DNA of 46,717 nt from Thainema sp. (lineage in GTDB: Bacteria; Cyanobacteriota; Cyanobacteriia; Phormidesmidales; Phormidesmidaceae), in contig JBQLZK010000038.1 in the NCBI GenBank assembly GCA_052168235.1, positions 1-46,717 of the forward strand, given 5' to 3'. Positions 124-46,717 of this stretch are shown piece after piece. The number at the start of each line of letters is the position of its first letter. Position 1 is the stretch's first letter. A program made the position numbers and the translations under genes. The notes under the pieces are model-generated. The model saw only the letters and a program-made list of their open reading frames with translations. It did not search any database and was not told where the DNA came from.

Positions 124-1239
124 ATGAATATCGGACTACCCAAAGAAATTAAAGATCAAGAATTCCGGGTTGGCTTGACTCCGGCTAGCGTTCAGGCGCT
201 TTGTCGGCAGGGTCATCAGGTCGTGGTTGAGCGTGGTGCGGGTGTCGGTTCTGGTTTTACCGATCAGGAATACACCCAAGCTGGGGCAACGCTCGTGACT
301 GATCCTGCGATCGCATGGAGTCAGGCAATGGTCGTCAAGGTAAAGGAACCGCAGCCATCGGAATATCAGTACTTCCGTAAAGATTTAATTCTATTTACTT
401 ATCTACACCTAGCGGCTGAGCCGGAGCTGACTAAAGCTTTAATTGACAGCGGTGTAAGTGCGATCGCATATGAAACGGTGATGACCGCTGATGGCAAGCT
501 GCCGCTGCTGACGCCGATGAGTATTATTGCTGGCCGCTTGTCCGTTCAGTTTGGTGCGCGTTACTTAGAACGCCAGCAGGGTGGTCGCGGTGTGCTGCTA
601 GGCGGCGTTCCCGGTGTGGCTCCCGGTCGCGTGGTCATCCTGGGTGGCGGCGTGGTCGGCGCGGAAGCGGCTAGAATTGCCGTTGGCATGGGCGCTCAGG
701 TACAAATTATTGATTTGAATGTCGAGCGCCTATCTTATCTAGAAACGATATTTGGTTCTCGGATTGAACTGCTCTACAGCACGCAGGCTCAAATTGAGGC
801 ATCGGTGCCAAATGCGGATCTGCTGATTGGTGCGGTGCTCGTACCGGGACGCAAAGCTCCGACGCTGGTGAGTAAGGAACTGGTCGCGAAAATGAAGCCC
901 GGTTCTGTGATCATTGACGTAGCGGTGGATCAGGGTGGCTGTATCGAAACCCTGCGGCCCACGTCTCACAGCCAGCCGACCTATATTGAATCCGGTGTGG
1001 TTCACTTTGGCGTTCCCAACATGCCCGGAGCGGCACCCTGGACAGCAACGCAAGCGTTAAACAACGCCACGCTGCCCTACACGCTGAAGCTTGCCAATAG
1101 CGGTTTAGATGCGCTAGTCACTGACAGCGCACTACGCCAGGGACTCAATATTTCCAAAGGAGAAATTGTCCATCCAGCAATCCAAGCTGCTTTTCCCGAC
1201 TTAGCAGACCGCAAAGTAACGCAAAGTGCTCTGAATTAA
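124..1239 (+). CDS. ald: Alanine dehydrogenase
   Basis: N-terminal IGLPKEIKDQEFRVGLTP, KVKEP, FTYLHLA, GGGVVG Rossmann motif, DVAVDQGGCIET, VPNMPGA. Confidence 0.97.
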   Translation: MNIGLPKEIKDQEFRVGLTPASVQALCRQGHQVVVERGAGVGSGFTDQEYTQAGATLVTDPAIAWSQAMVVKVKEPQPSEYQYFRKDLILFTYLHLAAEPELTKALIDSGVSAIAYETVMTADGKLPLLTPMSIIAGRLSVQFGARYLERQQGGRGVLLGGVPGVAPGRVVILGGGVVGAEAARIAVGMGAQVQIIDLNVERLSYLETIFGSRIELLYSTQAQIEASVPNADLLIGAVLVPGRKAPTLVSKELVAKMKPGSVIIDVAVDQGGCIETLRPTSHSQPTYIESGVVHFGVPNMPGAAPWTATQALNNATLPYTLKLANSGLDALVTDSALRQGLNISKGEIVHPAIQAAFPDLADRKVTQSALN

Positions 1240-1343
1240 AGCTTTACACTAGCTAGCAACATCTCGTTTAACCCTTATATGACTATGCATGCGGCGGCAG
1301 GTCAGCCTTCTGCCGCATAGTTTTTCCAATAACAGCGGTTCAA

Positions 1344-1745
1344 CTAATCCCCACTGCTCGGTTCCCGCTGCACAACCGTCCCACTGTCGAACAATTCACC
1401 ATTGCGGGTTAGGGAGCATTGCGATGTTGTGTTGTTTGGCACAAACAGCGCCCATTGGTTTTCACCCCGCTCATTGCTGTAAGTATAGCCCTCTGGATTT
1501 GGTTCCCGGATAGCAGATGTGTCTAGGAACACTACATTGTCTGAGCGGTCATAGAGCCTAAGTTTGAGCGTACTATCTGGAGCCTCTGGATCACCACTGC
1601 GATAGACATTCATCGCCAGTTGGTCACCATCACAGTAGGCAATGGTGAAATCTGCATTGGCGCGATGAACAATCAGTACGCTGCCTGCCACTATTCCAGT
1701 TGCAGCAACTCCCAGACCAATAAAGCGTTTAGATAAATTGAACAT
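1344..1745 (-). CDS. Secreted hypothetical protein
   Basis: 133 aa; signal-peptide-like N-terminus ending ANA-D; two Cys. Confidence 0.75.
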   Translation of the reverse strand: MFNLSKRFIGLGVAATGIVAGSVLIVHRANADFTIAYCDGDQLAMNVYRSGDPEAPDSTLKLRLYDRSDNVVFLDTSAIREPNPEGYTYSNERGENQWALFVPNNTTSQCSLTRNGELFDSGTVVQREPSSGD

Positions 1746-5496: not shown

Positions 5497-6576
5497 ATGA
5501 ATTTATACCAGTTAGGCTGGAGCAAAACATTTGCTGCTGCTTTTGAATCCTTTAATGGTAAGGGATTTACCGTTGGGCGCGTTGCGTCCGAACACCGCGA
5601 TCGCTATCAGCTTTATACCGAACAGGGCGAGCTACCAGCGGAAATTACGGGCAAACTCCGCTATCAAGCCGAGGAATATCTGATCAGTGATGAACCTATG
5701 CGGCCTGCAGTCGGTGATTGGGTGGTGATTGAACTGCTCGATCAGGCGACTCACGCCATGATTCATCACGTTTTGCCGCGCCGCAGCCAGTTTTCTCGCA
5801 AAGCTGCCGGGCAGCGCACTGAAGAACAGGTGATTGCCGCTAATGTCGATACCATATTTCTAGTATCGGGATTAGACCATGACTTTAACCTGCGGCGAAT
5901 TGAGCGCTATCTGGTACTAACCTGGGAAAGCGGCGCAAATCCGGTGATTGTGCTGAATAAAGCCGATCTCTGTGTAGATCTACCCGCTCAGTTGCAGGCT
6001 GTATCTGCGATCGCACCTGGCGTCGAAATCATTACCCTGAGCGCCTTGACTTCCGAGGGACTTGAGGCGTTACAGCCCTACCTGCGACCCGGTCAAACCG
6101 TTGCCCTGCTTGGCTCATCGGGCGTTGGCAAGTCAACTCTGACTAATCAGCTCATGGGGCAAGTAACGCAAGAAACGCAAGCGGTGCGGTCAAGCGATAG
6201 TCGCGGGCGTCATACAACGACTCATCGGCAATTACTCTGCCTGCCGTCAGGCGGTTTGCTGATTGACACACCGGGAATGCGAGAGCTACAGATCTGGAGC
6301 GACGAGTCCAGCGTGCAGCAAACCTTCGAGGATATCGAGGAACTGGCAACGCAGTGTCGTTTTCGGAACTGTCAGCATCAGGATGAACCCGGTTGTGCTA
6401 TACAGGCAGCAATTTCAGAGGGCTGGCTAGACTGCGATCGCGTTGCGAGCTACCAAAAGCTAAGCCGTGAGCAAGCGTACCTCGAACGCAAGCAAGATCA
6501 ACGACTACGGGCCAACACCAAAGCCCGCTGGAAAAAGATCACCAAGCAAATGCGACAGCATTACAAGCAACGGTAA
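5497..6576 (+). CDS. rsgA: Ribosome small subunit-dependent GTPase RsgA (probably a secondary paralog)
   Basis: OB-fold [35 protein letters not shown], [14 protein letters not shown] Zn finger; ATG at 5497 preferred over TTG at 5476. Confidence 0.95.
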
Positions 6577-6587
6577 CTATCTAGAAA

Positions 6588-6626
6588 AAGTCATTAAGCT
6601 GCCGCATCGCGGCGGCTTAATGACTT
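6588..6626 (+). terminator. Inverted repeat after rsgA
   Basis: AAGTCATTAAGCTGCCGC-ATC-GCGGCGGCTTAATGACTT. Confidence 0.55.
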
Positions 6627-6823
6627 CCTTGAGTTTCGATACAAGATAAAACAAGGTAGAACCAGCGCAAAATCCCTGAACCATATCTAGTCCTCAGCCC
6701 TCATACTCATAACCCAACACCCAACACCCAACACCTAAAGCCTAAAACCCAATCCTCATTCCACCAATTCCTGCTAATTGCTCCCAAAATCGGCTAGATT
6801 TAATCTCATCACCGTTTCTTAAG

Positions 6824-7498
6824 GTGACAAAGGAGTGTTGTTATTCGTTGAATCATGATGTCAGTGCTTCTCTAACCCAGCTTTACCAGGACGTAAATGC
6901 TCAGATTGCTTCATTTCAGGCGGCAACTGGGCTGCAGTGTCCCCCCGGTTGTGGCCAATGTTGTGAAAATCCAGAGGTTGAATCCTCTCCCTTGGAGATG
7001 GTGCCGATGGCGCTAGAACTCATTCGGCGAGGTGACGCGGCGGCTTGGCTCGAACAGGCTGATATCGCAGGAGTTCCTAGCCGATGCGTGTTCTATCAGC
7101 CGGATGAACATGTGGCCGGTAACGGTCGCTGCCAGATGTATATGTGGCGACCCTCTATCTGTCGGTTGTTTGGCTTTGCAGCCGTCACCGACAAACTAGG
7201 TACGCCGAAATTAGCGGCCTGTTTCAAGCACAAGCAGGTGTATCCCGATCAGGTAGCAATGGCCCAGGTTGCGATCGCAAATGGTCTGCCAGTACCTCAG
7301 TTTGCCGACTGGCAAACGCAGATTGCCAATGTAGATCCGCACTGGGGCTATCAGCGGATGCCGATTAACCAAGCGCTGAAGATCGCGATTGAGCGGGTCA
7401 GCTTGAGCTTGGCCTACGAAACCCAAAGTCCGGCAAATGCCATGCCGTCAACTGAGTCAGAATCGGCTCCAGAATCGGCTTATGAAACCCTAGAATGA
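6824..7498 (+). CDS. YkgJ/UPF0153-family cysteine-cluster protein
   Basis: CxxGCxxCC ... CxF ... CxxYxxRPxICRxF; exact start uncertain. Confidence 0.85.
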   Translation: MTKECCYSLNHDVSASLTQLYQDVNAQIASFQAATGLQCPPGCGQCCENPEVESSPLEMVPMALELIRRGDAAAWLEQADIAGVPSRCVFYQPDEHVAGNGRCQMYMWRPSICRLFGFAAVTDKLGTPKLAACFKHKQVYPDQVAMAQVAIANGLPVPQFADWQTQIANVDPHWGYQRMPINQALKIAIERVSLSLAYETQSPANAMPSTESESAPESAYETLE

Positions 7499-10313: not shown

Positions 10314-10419
10314 TATATCAAGTTTGGCTGAAAACCCATGATTTATTTTTTGTGAAACGTTTGCGGAGCAAACGTTTCACAAAAAATAAATCGGGTTCTT
10401 ACACACAGGCTTGATATTA
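10314..10419. repeat. Palindromic MITE-like element (family copy 1)
   Basis: ATTTATTTTTTGTGAAACGTTTGC-GGA-GCAAACGTTTCACAAAAAATAAAT with TATATCAAG/CTTGATATT ends; related copies at 26172-26277, 14091-14133 (half) and 20172-20255. Confidence 0.75.
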
Positions 10420-15503: not shown

Positions 15504-15718
15504 CGAGAGCCGTTATTGCAAATTATTATATTGCCACCGGACACGGTGCTAGCATACTCCCTGCAAGGGTTTCGTGCTTCAGATCACAGACCTGAGATTT
15601 CCTGAGTTTCCTCCCAAAAGCCTCGACAAAGACCATAGTTTTTCCGTAGTGACGGCTACAAAATCGATTGTTAGTTTGGAATCGTCCGATGTTAAAGCCC
15701 CCAACGGAGAAACAATCT

Positions 15719-17701
15719 ATGAACGGTAATCTCGAATTCTTGCTTAATCTCATTATCAGCAATCTGTTCCCTGATGCGCCCCCGATCGATAATTTAGGCG
15801 ACGTTTTCTTTGGTGATGACGGCAACGACCAGTTTGTTGGAGGAGATAAACAAGATATCTTCTTCGGAGGAAAAGGAAACGACAAAATTGAAGGCGGTGA
15901 CGAAACTGACGTAGCCTTCGGTGGTGCAGGTGACGACACTATCGTTGGTCAGCGCGGTGACGACGTTGTTGCAGCCGGTGCAGGTGATGACCGCGTGATC
16001 TGGAACAACGGCGACGGTAGCGACCTAATTGATGGTGGTTCTGGTTACGATGTCTCTGAAGTCAACGGTTCCAACAATAGTGGTGATGAATTCACTCTTC
16101 AGCAAAACGACAAGGGACAAGCCATTTTCGACCGCGTCAACCTCGGCCCCTTCACCCTGACTCAAGACAGCATTGAGCAGATGGAAGTCAATGGTCTAGG
16201 CGGTGACGATTCCTTTACCATCGGTGATTTGTCTAACACAACTATCAAACGCATTCTATTCTCGGGTGGAGACGGTAACGACGTCTTAGATGCACGGGAA
16301 AGTGCAACGCTGATTGAAGCCGATGGTGGTGCGGGTGATGACCTGCTGCAAAGCGGTTCCGCTGCTGACAACCTCAAAGGTGGAGACGGTAACGACACCA
16401 TCGTTGCTCAGCGGGGCGATGATGTGATTGATGCTGGTGACGGTGACGATCGCGTGATTTGGAACAATGGCGACGGTAGCGACCTGATTAATGGTGGCAT
16501 GGGCTTTGATGTCTCTGAAGTCAACGGTTCCAACAACAGCGGTGATGAATTCACCCTCCAGCAAAATGACCAGGGACAAGCCATTTTCGACCGCGTTAAT
16601 CTCGGCCCCTTCACATTAACTCAAGACAACATTGAGCAGATGGAAGTCAACGGCCAAGGTGGCGACGATTCCTTCACTATTGGTGACCTGTCGAAAACCA
16701 CGATTGAAAAGGTCGTATTCTCGGGTGGAGACGGGAACGACGTCTTAGATGCACGAGAAAGTGCAACACCGATTGAAGCCGATGGTGGTGCCGGGGATGA
16801 CCTGCTGCAAAGCGGTTCCGGTGCTGACAACCTCAAAGGTGGAGACGGTAATGACACCATCGTTGCTCAGCGGGGCGATGATGTGATTGATGCGGGTGAC
16901 GGTGACGATCGCGTGATTTGGAACAATGGCGACGGTAGCGACCTGATTAATGGTGGCATGGGCTTTGATGTCTCTGAAGTCAATGGTTCCAACGCTAGCG
17001 GTGATGAGTTCACCCTCCAGCAAAATGACCAAGGACAAGCCATTTTCGATCGCGTCAACCTCGGCCCCTTCACCCTGACTCAAGACAACATTGAGCAGAT
17101 GGAAGTCAACGGCCAAGGTGGTGACGATTCCTTCACCATTGATGACCTGTCGAATACTACGATTCAGAGCATCTTGTTCTCGGGTGGAGATGGCAACGAC
17201 ATCTTGGATGCCGGGAACACCGCAACGCCCATTGTAGCCGATGGTGGCGCGGGCGATGACATCCTGATCGGTGGTTCCGGTGACGATATTCTGATCGGTG
17301 GCGACGGTAGCGACCTGCTGATCGGTGGAGCTGGTAACGACATCCTGATTGGTGGCAACGGGCCGGACAGCTTCGGCTTTGACAGCGGAGCACTGTTCAA
17401 TCCTAGCGATATCGGTACTAACCAGATTCAAAACTTTGATGCGGCTACCGATAGCATCATCCTGGATCAGACGGTCTTCGCCGCCATTACTGGAGATAGC
17501 TTTAGCTCAGACTACTGTGGCATGGTTGCTACCGATGCTGAGGCTGCTTCGAGTGATGCGTTGATTGTCTACAGCATGGGTTCGGGTAACCTGTACTACA
17601 ACCCTAATGGTGCTGAAGATAGCTACGGTAACGGCGGACAGTTTGCCGTGCTTGAAGGTGCGCCAACTCTAACGGCTGATAACTTTGTTGTTCAACCGTA
17701 G
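15719..17701 (+). CDS. Hemolysin-type (RTX) Ca-binding repeat protein
   Basis: Many GGxGxDxL nonapeptides; three near-identical 153-aa (459-bp) modules; no N-terminal signal, consistent with type I secretion; ATG at 15719 with GGAG SD. Confidence 0.9.
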   Translation: MNGNLEFLLNLIISNLFPDAPPIDNLGDVFFGDDGNDQFVGGDKQDIFFGGKGNDKIEGGDETDVAFGGAGDDTIVGQRGDDVVAAGAGDDRVIWNNGDGSDLIDGGSGYDVSEVNGSNNSGDEFTLQQNDKGQAIFDRVNLGPFTLTQDSIEQMEVNGLGGDDSFTIGDLSNTTIKRILFSGGDGNDVLDARESATLIEADGGAGDDLLQSGSAADNLKGGDGNDTIVAQRGDDVIDAGDGDDRVIWNNGDGSDLINGGMGFDVSEVNGSNNSGDEFTLQQNDQGQAIFDRVNLGPFTLTQDNIEQMEVNGQGGDDSFTIGDLSKTTIEKVVFSGGDGNDVLDARESATPIEADGGAGDDLLQSGSGADNLKGGDGNDTIVAQRGDDVIDAGDGDDRVIWNNGDGSDLINGGMGFDVSEVNGSNASGDEFTLQQNDQGQAIFDRVNLGPFTLTQDNIEQMEVNGQGGDDSFTIDDLSNTTIQSILFSGGDGNDILDAGNTATPIVADGGAGDDILIGGSGDDILIGGDGSDLLIGGAGNDILIGGNGPDSFGFDSGALFNPSDIGTNQIQNFDAATDSIILDQTVFAAITGDSFSSDYCGMVATDAEAASSDALIVYSMGSGNLYYNPNGAEDSYGNGGQFAVLEGAPTLTADNFVVQP

Positions 17702-18229: not shown

Positions 18230-18868
18230 CTACAAATTGAGCGGTTGAACATTCAGATCCTTCAGCGTGATTGAAAAATGGCGCTGTTCACCTGTTGCAA
18301 TGAAGGAAACAATCACCTCACAGGCCACCGCAACCGTTAGCATCACCAAATTGCGAGCTAGCGGATAATCACAAATATCATCATTCACGTCCGAAGGTAC
18401 TCGGTAATCATCATTCCAAACCACTTCCGCGTAATCAGCCGCAAGTCCCGCGTGGAGACAAGAAATTCCAGCTTGATCGACGTAATTTTTCACTGCTCGA
18501 CGAGAAATGCTGTTATCAAAAACATCAATGATCAACTTGCTCCCATTAAGGAGTTGGGCAGCATTATCTACAGTTAATTTTTTAGTTTCAATTTCGACCT
18601 TTGTGCCAATTGCTCGATACAGATTATTTGCCAAAATTTTGGCCTTAAATGCACCGACATCGGAACGATAATACGGCTGAGTTGAAAGATTCCGTTCTTC
18701 AATGCGATCGCAGTCAATTACCTTGAGTTTGCCGAACCCAGCCCGAGCCAAATTCTCAGCTAGATTGGCACCCAAAGCCCCCACGCCACAAAGAGTTACG
18801 GGATAGTCCTTCAGCTTTGCCATCACCGCATCGGTTCGGTAAAGTTGTTCATGGAGAAAGATAGTCAT
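18230..18868 (-). CDS. ThiF/E1-like adenylyltransferase (ubiquitin-like activating enzyme)
   Basis: GVGALG nucleotide loop, DxDRIEERNLSTQ, GAFKA, IIDVFDN; no CxxC Zn pairs; Cys in DDICDYP; ATGA overlap with upstream gene. Confidence 0.9.
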   Translation of the reverse strand: MTIFLHEQLYRTDAVMAKLKDYPVTLCGVGALGANLAENLARAGFGKLKVIDCDRIEERNLSTQPYYRSDVGAFKAKILANNLYRAIGTKVEIETKKLTVDNAAQLLNGSKLIIDVFDNSISRRAVKNYVDQAGISCLHAGLAADYAEVVWNDDYRVPSDVNDDICDYPLARNLVMLTVAVACEVIVSFIATGEQRHFSITLKDLNVQPLNL

Positions 18869-19692
18869 AGTCCTTCCATCACACCCACTAAGGATTGCAG
18901 GTCAAAATCGCGATCGCGCCCGCTCAAGCAAATACCAGAGCTGACTACCGTTAAGTCATTTTTTGTGATCGCACTGGTATGGCGAGTGCCGTCAGCCATT
19001 GTCCAATCAACTGTCCAGTACTCACCCCGATCCCGGAACTGGTGCAGTTCGCCGCCGCCAAGTTTGAGCGCCTGCCGCAGTCGGCGCTCGTCGCGCTGCG
19101 GTTGGGCAAATCCGGCTGTGCGCTGCGTGACTAACTCATATAGCGATCGCATTTCGGGCGTCATGTCCTTAAACTGCAAGTCTTCAACCGGAGTGAGCTG
19201 CTTGAGATTAGCTTGCAGGGTTTCTGCGATCTCAGGATCAGCCCGCCGATCAACCTCTTCAAACCAGCAGGACTGACCGTTCCAGCGAGCTGTGATTTGC
19301 TCAAATGCTACGCCTTCGGTTATCAGATGCACCAGCACGGGCTTAACAACTTTGAACCGCTGTCGCATATCCGCTTCATTGACTGGATAAGCTAGCCAGG
19401 TTCGATTCTGTAAGCGATAGGCTAACCGCAAGCGAATCGATTGAAACTGCTGCAAGTATGCAGCAATCTGGAATAGATCAGCTTCTTCTACTAGCGTTAC
19501 GGTCTGCGCATCCACAGGCTGAAAAATCCCCCATCCCTCAAACTGCTCGGGTTTCGGAATAAAGGTGTAAACCATGCCTGCAACCCGCGTGCGGACTCGC
19601 CCAGCCTTGACGCAGGGGGCGAGGAATTGAGTTGTTTGCAGGTGTGCTTCAGCACTGGCAATCTGATTCAAAAGCTGGCGGATGTCAGTCAT
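18865..19692 (-). CDS. Hypothetical protein with candidate E2-like C-terminal domain (SSGICLSG)
   Basis: 275 aa; translationally coupled between NADAR and ThiF; E2 assignment is inferred from G-I-C-L followed by an aromatic residue and an amphipathic helix. Confidence 0.8.
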   Translation of the reverse strand: MTDIRQLLNQIASAEAHLQTTQFLAPCVKAGRVRTRVAGMVYTFIPKPEQFEGWGIFQPVDAQTVTLVEEADLFQIAAYLQQFQSIRLRLAYRLQNRTWLAYPVNEADMRQRFKVVKPVLVHLITEGVAFEQITARWNGQSCWFEEVDRRADPEIAETLQANLKQLTPVEDLQFKDMTPEMRSLYELVTQRTAGFAQPQRDERRLRQALKLGGGELHQFRDRGEYWTVDWTMADGTRHTSAITKNDLTVVSSGICLSGRDRDFDLQSLVGVMEGL

Positions 19693-20125
19693 AGCGCAAA
19701 ATTTCGCGAACTTCCATTAGAATTTGTCCCAGTTTGTTCTTGCCGCTGCCGTCTTTGCCACAGCCCCAGTAGTAGTCAATAGGGGAATTTTCGACGATTA
19801 GTTCATTCCCAGTACTGAGTAAAATTTCTTGAATATTGGCATGGGTGCTAAACTTTTGCAGCACAGCTTTATGCATCACTTCATCCTTGACTTGTTCCCA
19901 GTCGGAACGAAGTGGCAATGTGCGATCGCGCCCCATGTTGGCAGCCTGTTTTGGCGTTTTGGTTTGCCGTACCTTTTCTAGATAAGAAGTGCCGACAAAC
20001 TTTTGTGCCTGAAAGTAATGTTCACTGGTTGCCCAATACAGCTCATCGAGCATGAAGCCATGCGCTGAGAAATTGGAGAAGCAACCGTAGGGTTTCTCTC
20101 GTTCAACGTAGAAATAAATGGTCAT
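19685..20125 (-). CDS. NADAR (YbiA-like) family protein
   Basis: FSNF, TSEHYFQAQKF, R.DWE.VK..VM, KF, LL.TG...IVE.SP.D.YWG.G..G.G.N.LG.ILM.VR. Confidence 0.95.
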   Translation of the reverse strand: MTIYFYVEREKPYGCFSNFSAHGFMLDELYWATSEHYFQAQKFVGTSYLEKVRQTKTPKQAANMGRDRTLPLRSDWEQVKDEVMHKAVLQKFSTHANIQEILLSTGNELIVENSPIDYYWGCGKDGSGKNKLGQILMEVREILRYD

Positions 20126-20171: not shown

Positions 20172-20255
20172 ACCCGACAATTGATTGTTTGAGAAGCTTG
20201 GCTTAGCCAAGCTTCTCAAACAATCAATTGGGTTCTTATACATGGACTCAAATCA
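20172..20255. repeat. Palindromic MITE-like element between RNA unit U1 and NADAR
   Basis: CAATTGATTGTTTGAGAAGCTTGGCT-T-AGCCAAGCTTCTCAAACAATCAATTG followed by GGGTTCTTATAC, as in the 10.3 kb and 26.2 kb elements. Confidence 0.7.
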
Positions 20256-20257
20256 TA

Positions 20258-20463
20258 CCTGCGTGCAAGTTTTTAGAGCATTGCGCGTTCTCAGTTACTT
20301 GGGGGACTCCGCTGGTGAGTTCTTACACACTCTTTCAAGGATGGCTACTTCTAAGCCCACCTCCCAGGTTCTTCGCACTCCCCGTTTACAAGCGCCCACT
20401 GCATGGCAGCGTCACGTTTCCTCTCGTACTCGTATGTAGGCTCCACAGTTTAGGGCACGCAGG
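20258..20463 (-). ncRNA. Y-RNA-like unit U1 carrying 23S sarcin-ricin loop and H42-H44 GTPase-associated-centre mimics
   Basis: Terminal stem CCUGCGUGC/GCACGCAGG; AGUACGAGAGGA at 20430-20419; CUGG-GAGGUGGGCUUAGAAGUAGCCAUCCUUGAAAGAGUGUGUAAGAACUCA-CCAG at 20367-20312. Confidence 0.85.
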
Positions 20464-22680: not shown

Positions 22681-24150
<1,470 letters not shown>

Positions 24151-24245: not shown

Positions 24246-24433
24246 CCGCGCAAGTTACAGAAGCTAAGTCAGTACTGAGTTACAAGTGCTGAGCTGCTTG
24301 CTCAGTCCTCAGTCCTCATCCCTCAGTCCTAACCTTTTGCCTGCTATGGGTCTCAGGCTTGCAGCGTACACCCCAGTGTACGCACCAGTTTGTGTTTTGG
24401 TAGGGTATGTAAGCTTCTGCGATCGGGGCGCGG
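24246..24433 (-). ncRNA. Y-RNA-like unit U2 (three-hairpin cargo, unidentified; contains a heptamer-repeat insertion)
   Basis: 5' CCGCGC-CCCGAUCGCAGAAGCUUACAUAC ... AGCUUCUGUAACUU-GCGCGG 3'; same scaffold as U1, U3, U4 and U5. Confidence 0.75.
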
Positions 24434-24457: not shown

Positions 24458-24604
24458 CACTTCGTGCAAGTCGAAAAAGCTGTTGTTTCATACACAGGAT
24501 TCGTAGCTTGCTTCCGCGAAGCGGTACCTATGACTGATCGATCCAAAATCGATTGCTCTACCACTGAGCCAGTATGTAAGCTTTTGGGGTTAGGGCACGA
24601 AGTG
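24458..24604 (-). ncRNA. Y-RNA-like unit U3 with embedded tRNA-like cloverleaf (anticodon UUG), T-loop interrupted
   Basis: Stem CACUUCGUGC/GCACGAAGUG; D arm UGGCUCAGUGGUAGAGC; anticodon arm AUCGA-UUUUGGA-UCGAU; T arm AUAGGU[22-nt insert]CGAAUCCUGU. Confidence 0.8.
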
Positions 24605-25427: not shown

Positions 25428-25609
25428 TTTCATGCAAGTCAGCAAAAGCGATTGACAGCTTACGGTCGCTCTTACCAACAAAGTTGGCAGCGGGCACGTA
25501 TGCTAGATCTGCGAGAGACCTAGAATCACACTTCGCTGGTTCGATCGCTCGAACTTCGCTACCTTAGGACCGTTATTCGTGTGTATGCTTCTGCGGTCGG
25601 GGCACGAAA
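25428..25609 (-). ncRNA. Y-RNA-like unit U4 carrying a circularly permuted 23S domain IV (H67-H71) mimic
   Basis: Stem UUUCGUGC/GCAUGAAA; AUAACGGUCCUAAGGUAGCGAA at 25576-25555; UGCCCGCUGCC...GGUAAGAGCGACCGUAA at 25496-25460. Confidence 0.85.
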
Positions 25610-25618
25610 GAAATCTTC

Positions 25619-25834
<216 letters not shown>

Positions 25835-26008: not shown

Positions 26009-26085
26009 TGGGGTGACTGACGAGAGTCGAACTCGCTAACACTGGTGTCACAAACCAGCCCCTCCACCGCTTCGGGTTCAGTCAC
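26009..26085 (-). tRNA. trnH: tRNA-His (GUG), CCA encoded, no genomic G-1
   Basis: GTGACTG/CAGTCAC acceptor, C73, CCA; CTGGT-TTGTGAC-ACCAG anticodon arm; GCGAG-TTCGACT-CTCGT T arm. Confidence 0.9.
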
Positions 26086-26087
26086 AG

Positions 26088-26161
26088 TGGATTCTGGTCG
26101 GATTTGAACCGACATCTTTCTGCTTGCAAGGCAGATGCTTTCCCAATTAAGCTACAGACCC
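26088..26161 (-). tRNA. trnA: tRNA-Ala (UGC) with 1-nt bulge in acceptor stem
   Basis: GGGTCTG...TAGCTTAATTGGGAAAGC; TCTGC-CTTGCAA-GCAGA; GTCGG-TTCAAAT-CCGAC; 3' CAGA(A)TCCA. Confidence 0.85.
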
Positions 26162-26171
26162 AAGATGAGGG

Positions 26172-26277
26172 TAATATCAATTCCGTGTATAAGAACCCTG
26201 TTTATTTTTTGTGAAATGCTTACTAAGCAAGCATTTCACAAAAAATAAACAATGGGTTTTTAACCGGATTTTATATA
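26172..26277. repeat. Palindromic MITE-like element (family copy 2, inverted relative to the 10314 copy)
   Basis: GTTTATTTTTTGTGAAATGCTT...AAGCATTTCACAAAAAATAAAC. Confidence 0.75.
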
Positions 26278-26280
26278 AAT

Positions 26281-26400
26281 GTCGTGCAAGTTGAAAAAGC
26301 TGTTGATTCATACACAGGACTTGAACCTGCAATCGACTGTTCTAGAGACAGTTGCCCTACCATTAGGCGAGTATGTAAGCTTTTTCGATCAGGGCACGAC
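26281..26400 (-). ncRNA. Y-RNA-like unit U5 with embedded tRNA-like cloverleaf (anticodon CUA)
   Basis: Stem GUCGUGC/GCACGAC and AAAAAGCU/AGCUUUUU; D arm GCCU-AAUGGU-AGGGC; ACUGU-CUCUAGA-ACAGU; GCAGG-UUCAAGU-CCUGU; acceptor CAUAC/GUAUG continues into the scaffold with no CCA. Confidence 0.85.
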
Positions 26401-26402
26401 AA

Positions 26403-26473
26403 CGCACAGACGAGGATTTGAACCTCGAACTACGGTTTTGGAGACCGTTGTGTTGCCGTTACACTATCCGTGC
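26403..26473 (-). tRNA. trnW: tRNA-Trp (CCA)
   Basis: GCACGGA/TCTGTGC acceptor, G73; ACGGT-CTCCAAA-ACCGT; CGAGG-TTCAAAT-CCTCG. Confidence 0.93.
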
Positions 26474-26556
26474 AAGAGAGGATTAAGTGCTGAGGGCTGA
26501 ACGCTGAGGGCCAAGTAAGAATTGTGAAATTGGCTTAGCTCCTTTGCGCTGTGTTG

Positions 26557-27583: not shown

Positions 27584-28042
27584 ATGAAGCTAGCAGAAGC
27601 CCTGATTGTGCGGGCAGATTGTCAAAAGCGGATTGCTCAACTTCAGCAGCGCCTCATGCGGAGCGCCAAAGTGCAAGAAGGCGAGCAAGCGCCCGAAAAC
27701 CCACAGGAACTGCTGGCTGAGCTAGATGCAGCAATTGTTGAACTGACTCAACTCATCCAGCAAATTAATAAAACCAACGCTATTACCTCCTTGCAGGATC
27801 AGACTCTGTCTGAAGCCCTCGCCCAGCGGGACACCCTGCAAACGAAGCGCAATATTTACAGTCGCTTAATTGAAGCAGCAGCGATTCAGCCAACTCGCTA
27901 TAGTCAATCTGAAGTCCGCTTTGTCAGCACCGTCAACATCGCCGAACTTCAGCGCCAAGTGGATACACTGGCTCGCGACTATCGCGTTCTGGATTCTGCG
28001 ATTCAGGAGATCAACTGGCAAGTTGATTTACTCGATAATTAA
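27584..28042 (+). CDS. DIP1984-family coiled-coil protein
   Basis: MKLAEAL..RAD.QKRI.QL..R......VQEG..P.E.P..L...IN.TN...RYS.SE....S......LD..IQ..NW..DL. Confidence 0.88.
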   Translation: MKLAEALIVRADCQKRIAQLQQRLMRSAKVQEGEQAPENPQELLAELDAAIVELTQLIQQINKTNAITSLQDQTLSEALAQRDTLQTKRNIYSRLIEAAAIQPTRYSQSEVRFVSTVNIAELQRQVDTLARDYRVLDSAIQEINWQVDLLDN

Positions 28043-28655: not shown

Positions 28656-29837
28656 ATGTCCTATCAACAACTCAAAATCTCTACACCAGCGCCTGTGTTC
28701 TCCTGGGCCAATCACGACCTGGGACACGCCGAAATCAGCATGGCGAAAAACGTTGCGTCCCTTCCCTTCGTGTTTAAGCATGTGGCGCTGATGCCCGATG
28801 TGCATCTGGGTAAAGGTGCGCTAGTTGGCTCCGTCATTGCTACCAAAGACGCCATTATTCCGGCAGCAGTCGGCGTAGACATCGGCTGCGGCATGTGCGC
28901 CATTCAAACGCCGTTTCAGGCCGACCAGCTTGACGGCAAGCTGAAGAAAATCCGCTCGGATATTGAAGCGGCGATTCCGACGGGCTTTGACCAGAATAAG
29001 GAGTCCGATAAGCAAGTCGATAACTGGCAGGGCTGGCAGCAGTTCAAAGAGCTGCATTCCGGCGTGCAGCACCTAGCGGGCAAAGCCCAAAAGCAAATGG
29101 GTTCGCTGGGTGGCGGCAACCACTTCATTGAGGTGTGTCTGGATACCAACGATCAGGTGTGGCTGATGCTGCATTCTGGTTCGCGCAATATCGGCAACAT
29201 GCTGGCTCAGAACCACATCAAGACGGCCAAAGAAGTGGCGAAGCTGGCCGAAATGAAGCTACCTGATCCCGATCTGTCCTACTTCGTAGCCGGAACGCCG
29301 GAGTTTGCCGCTTACTGGCGCGATTTGCAGTGGGCGCAGGACTATGCTCGGTTCAACCGTGAGGTGATGATGACTCGCTTCAAGCGAATTGTCGAAAAAC
29401 ACCTGGCAGGCGGCAAGCCAATCAAGCCACTGCTGTCGGTAAACTGCCACCACAACTACGCCGAGCAGGAAACTCACTTTGGCGAAGCGGTGTATGTCAC
29501 CCGCAAGGGAGCCGTGCGCGCTCAAACCAATGACTACGGGATTATTCCCGGTTCAATGGGCACCAAGTCCTACATTGTCAAGGGCAAGGGCCATGCCGAT
29601 AGCTACTGCTCATGCAGCCACGGTGCTGGCCGCACGATGTCCCGTAACCAAGCTAAGAAGCGCTTTTCACTGGATGATCTACTCCAGCAAACCGAAGGCG
29701 TGGAATGTCGTAAGGACAAGGGTGTCTTGGATGAAATTCCAGGTGCCTACAAGCCAATCGATGAGGTGATGGCTAGCCAGTCTGACCTGGTTGAGATCGT
29801 GGCAACCCTAAAGCAGGTCGTCTGCGTGAAAGGCTAG
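28656..29837 (+). CDS. rtcB: RNA-splicing/repair ligase RtcB
   Basis: MPDVH.G, VGVDIGCG, GSLGGGNHF.E, LHSGSR, NCHHNY, RKGA, IPGSMG, HGAGR, DEIP.AYK, KG. Confidence 0.98.
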   Translation: MSYQQLKISTPAPVFSWANHDLGHAEISMAKNVASLPFVFKHVALMPDVHLGKGALVGSVIATKDAIIPAAVGVDIGCGMCAIQTPFQADQLDGKLKKIRSDIEAAIPTGFDQNKESDKQVDNWQGWQQFKELHSGVQHLAGKAQKQMGSLGGGNHFIEVCLDTNDQVWLMLHSGSRNIGNMLAQNHIKTAKEVAKLAEMKLPDPDLSYFVAGTPEFAAYWRDLQWAQDYARFNREVMMTRFKRIVEKHLAGGKPIKPLLSVNCHHNYAEQETHFGEAVYVTRKGAVRAQTNDYGIIPGSMGTKSYIVKGKGHADSYCSCSHGAGRTMSRNQAKKRFSLDDLLQQTEGVECRKDKGVLDEIPGAYKPIDEVMASQSDLVEIVATLKQVVCVKG

Positions 29838-46508: not shown

Positions 46509-46650
46509 AGTCGATTTCTTAGAATGCTTTATTTGATTTAACCCAATTTTAGGGGTTCATGCATCAGGGGAATGGGCCTTAATTTCTGCAACTTGTAGCG
46601 ATAGTCATCTTGATTTGGAGGTTTTTGTGCGTCGCCGCATTACAAAAACC

Positions 46651-46717
46651 TCCAAATCTCAATCCAAATCTCAATCCAAATCTCAATCCAAATCTCAATC
46701 CAAATCTCAATCCAAAT
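46651..46717. repeat. 12-bp tandem repeat (TCCAAATCTCAA)n running off the window end
   Basis: At least 5.5 perfect copies. Confidence 0.9.

Follow-up and report, generated by a model that had tools for sequence, protein, structure and literature searches.

A conserved RNA gene carrying a 23S rRNA segment upstream of a divergent Ro60-like gene in the cyanobacterium Thainema sp.: a probable Y-RNA-type gene

The stretch of DNA analyzed here, called the window, comprises 46,717 nucleotides (nt) of Thainema sp. (assembly GCA_052168235.1, contig JBQLZK010000038.1), and all coordinates are window positions. It harbors a unit called U4, in which a scaffold encloses a module resembling 23S rRNA, and a gene for a divergent Ro60-like protein of 477 amino acids (aa). 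Below, R1 denotes a covariance model built from 34 aligned copies of U4 and A1 the alignment of the U4 family. U4, its parts and the Ro60-like gene are arranged as follows.

25430..25607, minus strand: U4 unit, scaffold plus rRNA-like module, 178 nt (R1 155.6 bits, E 2.3e-34)
25577..25607, minus strand: U4 5' scaffold strand, UCGUGC-CCCGAC...GAAGC-AUACACACGA, repeat family D9, common to other units
25555..25576, minus strand: U4 22-mer ATAACGGTCCTAAGGTAGCGAA, identical to 23S rRNA (3' strand of helix H69 and the following junction)
25539..25554, minus strand: U4 GNRA-capped hairpin GUUCGA-GCGA-UCGAAC at the H71 position (A1 pairs 60-64 with 69-73)
25498..25531, minus strand: U4 helix GUGUG/CAUAC at the H67 position, with a hairpin cap and its conserved loop UCUCGCA
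25475..25497, minus strand: U4 GUGCCCGCUGCC and the short hairpin CCAAC-UUU-GUUGG, a stump at the H68 position
25460..25476, minus strand: U4 GGUAAGAGC followed by GACCGUAA, 5' strand of an H69-like stem (A1 pairs 40-45 with 160-165)
25430..25459, minus strand: U4 3' scaffold strand, GCUGU...GCUUUU...GACUUGCAUGA (consensus of 300 units RAACUUGYRYGR)
22681..24114, minus strand: divergent Ro60-like protein, 477 aa, with a TROVE ring and a vWA domain with metal ion-dependent adhesion site (MIDAS) predicted by profile and fold searches

U4 also holds the segment GGUAAGAGCGACCGUAA and an ACGGUC/GACCGU pairing, both read from the window. The helix at the H67 position and its cap correspond to A1 pairs 83-87/114-118 and 93-100/106-112, with double changes at 84:117, 87:114 and 95:110.

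Homologous loci were found via the 477-aa protein in species-representative genomes, and the best 80 of 298 related places were fetched. Blastn followed by R1 revealed 34 copies of U4, namely the window copy, one on a plasmid and those in 32 of the 80 cyanobacterial loci. With R1 they score 116-218 bits, and the next match lies at 42.8 bits. In blastn searches with U4, plasmids yielded one homologue (pAfl69 of Dolichospermum flos-aquae, 76% identity) and phage genomes no match. Each copy is located on the strand of the Ro60-like gene and upstream of it, at 1.5-2.4 kb in the 32 of 80 loci and at 1.3 kb in the window. Since the copies stem mostly from Nostocales (84% mean column identity), their covariation represents few independent events. 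A model of the rRNA-like fold pairs 95.4% of the cells of A1 and contains 17 pairs with changes on both sides, compared to a mean of 5.3 in a shuffle control, where 0 of 500 shuffles reach 17, and to 1-5 with slid partners. A preliminary description of this DNA had argued that U4 is not passive rRNA debris, and this is borne out by the 34 copies and by substitutions that compensate each other in the capped hairpins, the H69-like stem and the closing stem. The unit is a conserved, selected and structured RNA gene.

For the 477-aa protein, Pfam reports a weak vWA domain alone and does not detect TROVE, NCBIfam and PADLOC hold no family, and the database names of its relatives are "vWA domain-containing" or "hypothetical". 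A family profile was built from 47 diverse relatives out of 1020 clusters at E<=1e-3. It matches human RO60 (1.2e-16), a phage TROVE protein (3.2e-15), Xenopus Ro (1.8e-13) and Deinococcus Rsr (2.8e-7), and 10 of the 47 relatives match Pfam vWA_Ro60. The AlphaFold (AF2) model has a predicted local distance difference test score (pLDDT) of 90.8, and its top 11 Foldseek neighbors in the PDB are all Ro60, Rsr or TROVE proteins (about 500 columns, template modeling (TM) score 0.57-0.69). The MIDAS residues are invariant among the relatives. Judged by profile and predicted fold, the protein is a Ro60 homologue and a divergent paralogue. Canonical cyanobacterial Ro60 measures 531-534 aa and its YrlA RNAs bear a different motif, and the survey listing them was confined to TROVE-annotated genes (PMC4201824). 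Because of these differences in length and RNA motif, the 477-aa protein would represent a second Ro60 lineage outside that TROVE-based survey. The Ro60-like gene and the Y-RNA-type scaffold are the main context, which the preliminary description had overlooked.

The ends of U4 are shared with many other units. Repeat analysis revealed that they recur elsewhere in the window (families D9, D17 and D18), and via the ends alone R1 matches 325 units (154 + 171) from 82 sources, all on the strand of the Ro60-like gene. Among 300 aligned units, at least one is present in 79 of the 80 genome loci, with a median of four. Their scaffold consensus is YYGYGCCCYRAY on the 5' side and RAACUUGYRYGR on the 3' side, arranged as a stem, bulged C residues and then RA opposite UU. 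The closing stem covaries over the 300 units: U189/C111 at position 4 stands against A186/G114 at position -4, and U142/C139/G18 at position 1 is opposite A135/G145/C16; U-A stands in about 187 units where about 112 have C-G. A regular-expression scaffold finder was dropped in favor of the covariance model, since it returned 398 candidates on both strands including false matches and missed the last of the following sister units.

26282..26399, minus strand: sister unit with tRNA-like insert, directly after tRNA-Trp (R1 37.0 bits; Rfam tRNA 50.6 bits on the insert)
24462..24600, minus strand: sister unit with tRNA-like insert and extra arm (R1 31.3 bits; repeat families D17 and D18)
24246..24433, minus strand: sister unit of 188 nt with an insert of no recognized kind, CUGCAAGCCUGAGACC class, GGUGCGUACACUGGGGUGUACGCUGCAAGCCUGAGACC... 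(R1 25.5 bits; clusters 4 and 11)
20261..20460, minus strand: sister unit with a 12-mer of the sarcin-ricin loop (SRL) at 20419-20430 and an H43/H44 mimic at 20312-20367, called the SRL+GAC unit (R1 20.0 bits)

Clustering of the 300 units revealed at least 114 with tRNA-like inserts (about 116-120 nt) and 49 in which T arm, capped stem and D arm follow each other in the order of a permuted tRNA-like fold; further classes are the U4 type with 34 units, a minimal one (about 70 nt) immediately before the gene and one of about 200 nt after it. For the tRNA-like sister unit, the only Rfam match above noise is the tRNA model; the U4 module, unlike these sister units, has no tRNA match. A resemblance of U4 CCUAAGGUAGCG to the D-loop of the tRNA-like sister unit was judged incidental given the 22-nt rRNA identity. 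Genes for tRNA-Trp and tRNA-Ala adjoin scaffold units and a tRNA-like stretch at 26012-26085 (regions 26012-26474 and 24485-24578, minus strand). ARAGORN labels the tRNA-like inserts "tRNA-Pyl (CUA)" and a 94-nt "tRNA-Gln"; the inserts called in this way are modules of scaffold units and no genes for normal tRNAs, and annotation might mistake them for suppressor tRNAs. Long perfect AT-rich palindromes (TTTATTTTTTGTGAAATGCTT...AAGCATTTCACAAAAAATAAA) lie between units and elsewhere (26201-26249, 10342-10390 and 20178-20230) and may be terminators or a repeat element.

The insert at 24246-24433 belongs to a conserved class and gives neither an Rfam match nor a significant match to E. coli rRNA. 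The SRL+GAC unit, on the other hand, reaches 53.1 bits with the Rfam large-subunit (LSU) model (gathering score 50) over model positions 1093-1148, which we take to be the helices H43/H44 of the L11/GTPase centre. Its 12-mer AGUACGAGAGGA, that of the sarcin-ricin loop, is found once in E. coli 23S rRNA and, in 50 of the 80 genome loci, once on the strand of the gene and downstream of it. The minimum free energy (MFE) fold of this unit is no better than those of shuffles (z -0.35). As an instance of rRNA mimicry, the SRL+GAC unit may be stronger than U4, and judged by sequence likeness the system of units copies at least three regions of ribosomal RNA plus tRNA. The conserved cap-hairpin loop of U4, GUCUCUCGCAG (25509-25515, minus strand), contains a CUCUCG complementary to the CGAGAG of the sarcin-ricin loop in both the sister unit and 23S rRNA; this is probably a coincidence, as by eye CUCUCG lies partly within the stem.

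The likeness of U4 itself to 23S rRNA centers on the 22-mer. ATAACGGTCCTAAGGTAGCGAA has a single match in the window even at <=3 mismatches, where 0.00 are expected from 100 shuffles, and in local alignments against E. coli 23S, 16S and 5S rRNA it outscores 200 of 200 shuffles. It matches annotated 23S rRNA in 5426 of 5426 complete E. coli genomes, and extending it gives 25 of 26 bases alike. In the E. coli 23S copy L002 (2899 nt annotated, with an extra A in the H69 loop) it lies at 1911-1932, which corresponds to 1916-1937 in conventional E. coli numbering; the helix names are likewise conventional. The exact match reported in the preliminary description is hereby confirmed in its place, and the 22-mer is a genuine 23S segment, far above chance. 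Full identity is confined to the window copy, which keeps all 22 positions; the other copies, including those of Nostocales, keep 18 (six copies), 19 (20 copies) or 20 (seven copies), and 15 of the 22 positions are invariant.

Beyond the 22-mer, the evidence becomes weaker. The segments formerly compared to 23S 1834-1844 and 1896-1913 are present, and U4 UGCCCGCUGCC agrees with E. coli UGCCCGGUGCC in 10 of 11 bases, while GGUAAACGGCGGCCGUAA is the E. coli counterpart of U4 GGUAAGAGCGACCGUAA. However, neither likeness exceeds that of shuffled sequences in local alignments against the E. coli rRNAs: 51 of 200 shuffles score as well as the UGCCCGCUGCC segment, and 168 of 200 equal the GGUAAG...CCGUAA segment. 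In the window copy and in the divergent copy L039, the UGCCCGCUGCC segment nevertheless finds its best rRNA match exactly at the predicted site. The H69 5' strand pairs with the 22-mer, so its likeness adds no independent evidence. An alignment of the whole unit to 23S rRNA did not succeed: the Rfam LSU model leaves U4 unaligned (0 matches at E<=10), and colinear similarity ends at about 26-30 nt, the other segments being within the range of shuffles. At the level of helices, the H71-like hairpin (25554-25539) and the capped GUGUG/CAUAC helix (25531-25498) are found as previously described, and the claim that H69 is re-formed across the unit agrees with the ACGGUC/GACCGU pairing and its covariation at 44:161 (CG13/UG6/UA5) and 45:160 (CG21/UA5/UG5).

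Further genes accompany the units, and their distribution was followed by tblastn.

25619..25819, minus strand: open reading frame (ORF) of 66 aa ending in Gly, which stops 12 nt before U4 (71 of 81 loci)
18865-19692, minus strand: 275-aa protein of no recognized family (65 of 81 loci)
18230-18868, minus strand: short ThiF/E1-like adenylyltransferase, Pfam ThiF E 1.4e-25 (62 of 81 loci)
19685-20125, minus strand: NADAR-domain protein (7 of 81 loci)
27584-28042, plus strand: DIP1984/DUF6847 protein (2 of 81 loci)
28656-29837, plus strand: RtcB ligase (1 of 81 loci)

The 66-aa ORF has no family in Pfam, NCBIfam or PADLOC and a 243-aa ORF downstream of U4 none in NCBIfam or PADLOC; for the 275-aa protein, Pfam, NCBIfam and PADLOC gave nothing and the ESM Atlas no usable match. 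The 66-aa ORF, the 275-aa protein and the ThiF/E1-like enzyme, which conserved linkage makes the protein partners of the Ro60-like gene, could constitute a ubiquitin-like conjugation or adenylation module. In the slot up to 60 nt past the 66-aa ORF, the 71 loci contain a U4-type unit (30 loci), a unit of another class (22) or nothing (17), and two further U4-type units are located at 70-80 nt. The closest relative, L003 (96% protein identity), has no U4 in that slot and possesses the same ORFs. Such an alternation of U4, another module or nothing, together with L003, fits exchangeable cassettes. In 27 of 81 loci, the array upstream of the Ro60-like gene also contains the gene of a ribosomal protein L7/L12 paralogue, at 1189-1578 (plus strand) of L039 (Pfam Ribosomal_L12 1.4e-23) and at about 6100-6850 in the 26 others; the window lacks it. 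Elsewhere in the window, a 677-aa protein with RTX repeats (HemolysinCabind; 15668-17701, plus strand) contains three internal DNA repeats of 459 nt, and an array of 12-nt tandem repeats occupies the window end (46639-46717).

The system also occurs in a phage and on a plasmid. The uncultured phage LR756511.1 of 595 kb (L084, 7653-11425) harbors the Ro60-like gene and scaffold units among tRNA arrays, and the 1.2-Mb plasmid pA of Kovacikia (L085, 3450-11401) combines both with about 30 tRNA genes and an SRL+GAC unit. Neither stretch has a U4-type unit.

Taken together, we favor with some confidence the explanation that U4 is a Y-RNA-type non-coding RNA gene of a ribonucleoprotein built on the divergent Ro60 paralogue. 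Here, the two ends of U4 pair into a conserved bulged stem (5' GYGC-CC-YRA, 3' ACUU-GCRC), presumably the docking site of the Ro60-like ring, and an exchangeable module would project from this scaffold stem. In U4, the module would derive from, or imitate, 23S rRNA around the base of H69 and the H70/H71 junction, with the H69 stem rebuilt between the module ends and the other helices swapped for short capped hairpins. By analogy with the YrlA-type Y RNAs, the module would be the effector end and would offer an rRNA-like surface to a protein whose normal target is this part of the 50S interface; such a protein could be a factor for assembly or modification, a ligand of the interface or a toxin directed at ribosomes. 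The bound protein might then be tethered to the Ro60-like particle or titrated by it. Binding of U4 to the Ro60-like protein, an rRNA-like three-dimensional fold and an activity as decoy or tether are all predictions of this explanation, and in general the modules might be toxin baits, factor tethers or regulators of the Ro60-like ring.

This explanation draws on several likenesses to known systems. YrlA-type Y RNAs lie, like U4, beside a Ro60-family gene on the same strand and often in several per locus (PMC4201824). Both consist of a terminal stem with a conserved bulged motif and of a module that imitates an RNA of translation; in both the mimic is entered by a non-native helix, carries a capped "acceptor" stem and is hence permuted, and both systems are found in phages (PMC4201824). 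The permutation with capped ends, to which the preliminary description had drawn attention, is therefore a design known from YrlA RNAs (PMC4201824) and from the permuted tRNA-like sister units. In contrast to YrlA, the U4 module imitates 23S rRNA and not tRNA, and the scaffold motif is GYGCCCYRA...ACUUGCRC as compared to GNCGAAN0-1G in YrlA (PMC4201824). Likewise, the protein partner is a 477-aa paralogue unseen by Pfam TROVE instead of the canonical Ro60 of 531-534 aa reported there (PMC4201824), and the locus partners are the 66-aa ORF, the 275-aa protein and the E1-like ThiF protein, whereas the YrlA/Ro60 system is accompanied by RtcB and RtcR.

The metazoan Y RNAs offer a second comparison. 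In the 3' strand of their Ro60-binding helix, UU stands opposite GA. The U4 scaffold apparently keeps both strands of the Ro60 helix, that is the stem, the bulged C and GA opposite UU. The scaffold motif GYGCCCYRA/ACUUGCRC resembles the GGUCCGA which Ro60 contacts in the bulged helix of Y RNA (PMC4201824). U4 differs from the metazoan Y RNAs in sequence, size and module, and no Rfam Y RNA family was matched.

Several points weigh against the explanation as a Y-RNA-type gene. The loci were selected through the Ro60-like gene, so units distant from such genes would escape. Searched alone against Rfam, U4 yields 0 matches at E<=10, so membership in the curated Y RNA families is not shown, and its scaffold motif has no literal match to the YrlA motif GNCGAAN0-1G (PMC4201824). 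A scan for promoters and terminators around U4 gave background values (6 vs. 4.6 expected and 2 vs. 1.9), with none specific to U4. RtcB was considered as a core partner and rejected, as it occurs within 7 kb in 1 of 81 loci, which leaves the link to RNA repair weak. To these points come the competing helix and the fold energies considered next.

The preliminary description had gone further and proposed that U4 is a faithful permuted miniature of the five-way junction of 23S domain IV (H67-H71), and that it serves as a decoy for toxins, factors or enzymes directed at H69-H71. We consider this possible, yet on the doubtful side. The 22-nt strand of the window copy is identical to domain IV, the H69 stem has the same pairs, and hairpins are present at the places of H71, H67 and H68, so that order and positions of the helices are right. 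In the junction model UAAGGUAG is exposed and the pairs 46:50 and 121-122:158-159 are formed. Of these, 46:50 (CG31/UA1) and 122:158 (CG29/UA3) show double changes, compared to merely GC29/GU3 at the competing pair 78:122, and 54:79 and 55:78 are pairable in every copy. L039 retains the GNRA hairpin through two double changes and, by eye, the H68 stump with another stem, CUUGG/CCAAG. The SRL+GAC sister unit shows that ribosomal functional centres are indeed copied in this system, and the best match of UGCCCGCUGCC at the predicted site is in line with the miniature. On the other hand, the 22-mer alone is above chance. As compared to domain IV itself, the order is permuted, H68 is reduced to 4-5 pairs and a GNRA hairpin replaces H71. 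The H69 loop and the part of H70 comprising bases 1938-1944 are missing. In the ribosome, these elements contain several known enzyme and toxin target sites. Furthermore, the helices of the junction comprise just 1-3 base pairs each, in 32 of 34 copies the alternative folds have the greater stability, and the junction pair 56:76 is open in 20 of 32 distinct copies. The parts of the miniature are thus seen in the alignment, whereas its fold as a whole is possible and not established.

A competing fold was obtained with RNAalifold. Its consensus contains the closing stem, two scaffold helices, the H69-like stem, the GNRA hairpin and the "H67" helix with its cap hairpin; it also pairs CUAAGGUAGY with RCUGCC...UUGG, a helix foreign to rRNA. 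This competing GGUAGY:RCUGCC helix covaries (55:130, UA26/CG2/other4). Nearest-neighbor energies favor the fold foreign to rRNA, with means of -27.0 (rRNA-like model), -30.3 (hybrid model), -33.7 (alifold) and -46.7 kcal/mol (MFE); in 2 of 34 copies the rRNA-like model surpasses the hybrid. On A1, the hybrid pairs 94.7% of the cells with 15 double-change pairs. The covariation across homologous loci thus yields the 17 double-change pairs mentioned above, but both the rRNA-like and the competing fold fit it.

A related alternative takes the rRNA segment for a relic with a fold of its own (GGUAGY:RCUGCC and GCG:UGC), without any mimicry of the ribosome and with the loops UCUCGCA, AGCGAAG and GUAAGA as the functional parts. 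In its favor are the consensus fold, the covariation at 55:130, the greater stability of that fold in 32 of 34 copies and the drift of the Nostocales copies to 18-20 of 22 positions. Nevertheless, of 32 distinct copies, four have lost the pair 55:130 and just four form 56:129, the 15 invariant rRNA positions include unpaired ones, and where column 122 changes from C to U, the compensating change is found at column 158 and not at column 78. We regard a mere relic as unlikely.

It is very unlikely that U4 is a cis element, either as the 3' untranslated region (UTR) of the 66-aa ORF or as the leader of the 243-aa ORF. Such an element would be comparable to the leaders of ribosomal-protein operons, which are, like U4, short RNAs copying a protein-binding piece of rRNA. 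The start of U4 12 nt past the ORF stop, the lack of a promoter of its own in the scan and the ORF-U4 order in 30 of 71 loci agree with this. However, the ORFs occur without U4 in L003, a different unit fills the slot in 22 of 71 loci, and the scaffold is common to units that do not adjoin ORFs. Moreover, the flanking ORFs are not ribosomal proteins by Pfam and NCBIfam, and U4 differs from these leaders in that it lies outside a ribosomal-protein 5' UTR, has a self-contained scaffold and is part of a multi-module array.

That U4 is passive 23S debris, or a DNA-level target or decoy for the homing endonuclease of a 23S intron, as had also been suggested, is most improbable: the window 22-mer presumably comprises 22 bases of the I-CeuI site region, but the 34 copies occupy a fixed genomic slot and have nothing colinear with 23S past about 26-30 nt, the family copies deviate from the rRNA at 2-4 of 22 positions while the RNA pairings stay with compensatory changes, which speaks against selection for the DNA site, and no intron or endonuclease gene was seen nearby.

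Returning to U4 as a Y-RNA-type gene, the mimics of tRNA, of SRL+GAC and of H69-H71, together with the L7/L12 paralogue, the tRNA arrays and the carriage by plasmid and phage, point to proteins that recognize the translation machinery. Tentatively, the system might be a second kind of Ro60 particle, present in cyanobacteria, on megaplasmids and in at least one megaphage, whose interchangeable Y RNAs would in conflicts act as a "pseudo-ribosome" bait capturing, sensing or neutralizing toxins or factors that target ribosomes or tRNA; U4 would then lure any attacker or ligand of the 50S interface. Full-text literature searches gave no paper on Y RNAs with rRNA-like modules or on this Ro60-like family.

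Known bacterial Y RNAs imitate tRNA, and the purpose of this imitation is open. Here, modules appear to imitate rRNA centres too, which, if true, would mean that Ro60 particles are in general designed to mimic the translation apparatus. Since several defined baits would become available for the fishing of partners, the function of Y RNAs would be directly testable, and a large family of Ro60-like proteins, hitherto unannotated in databases, would be recognized.

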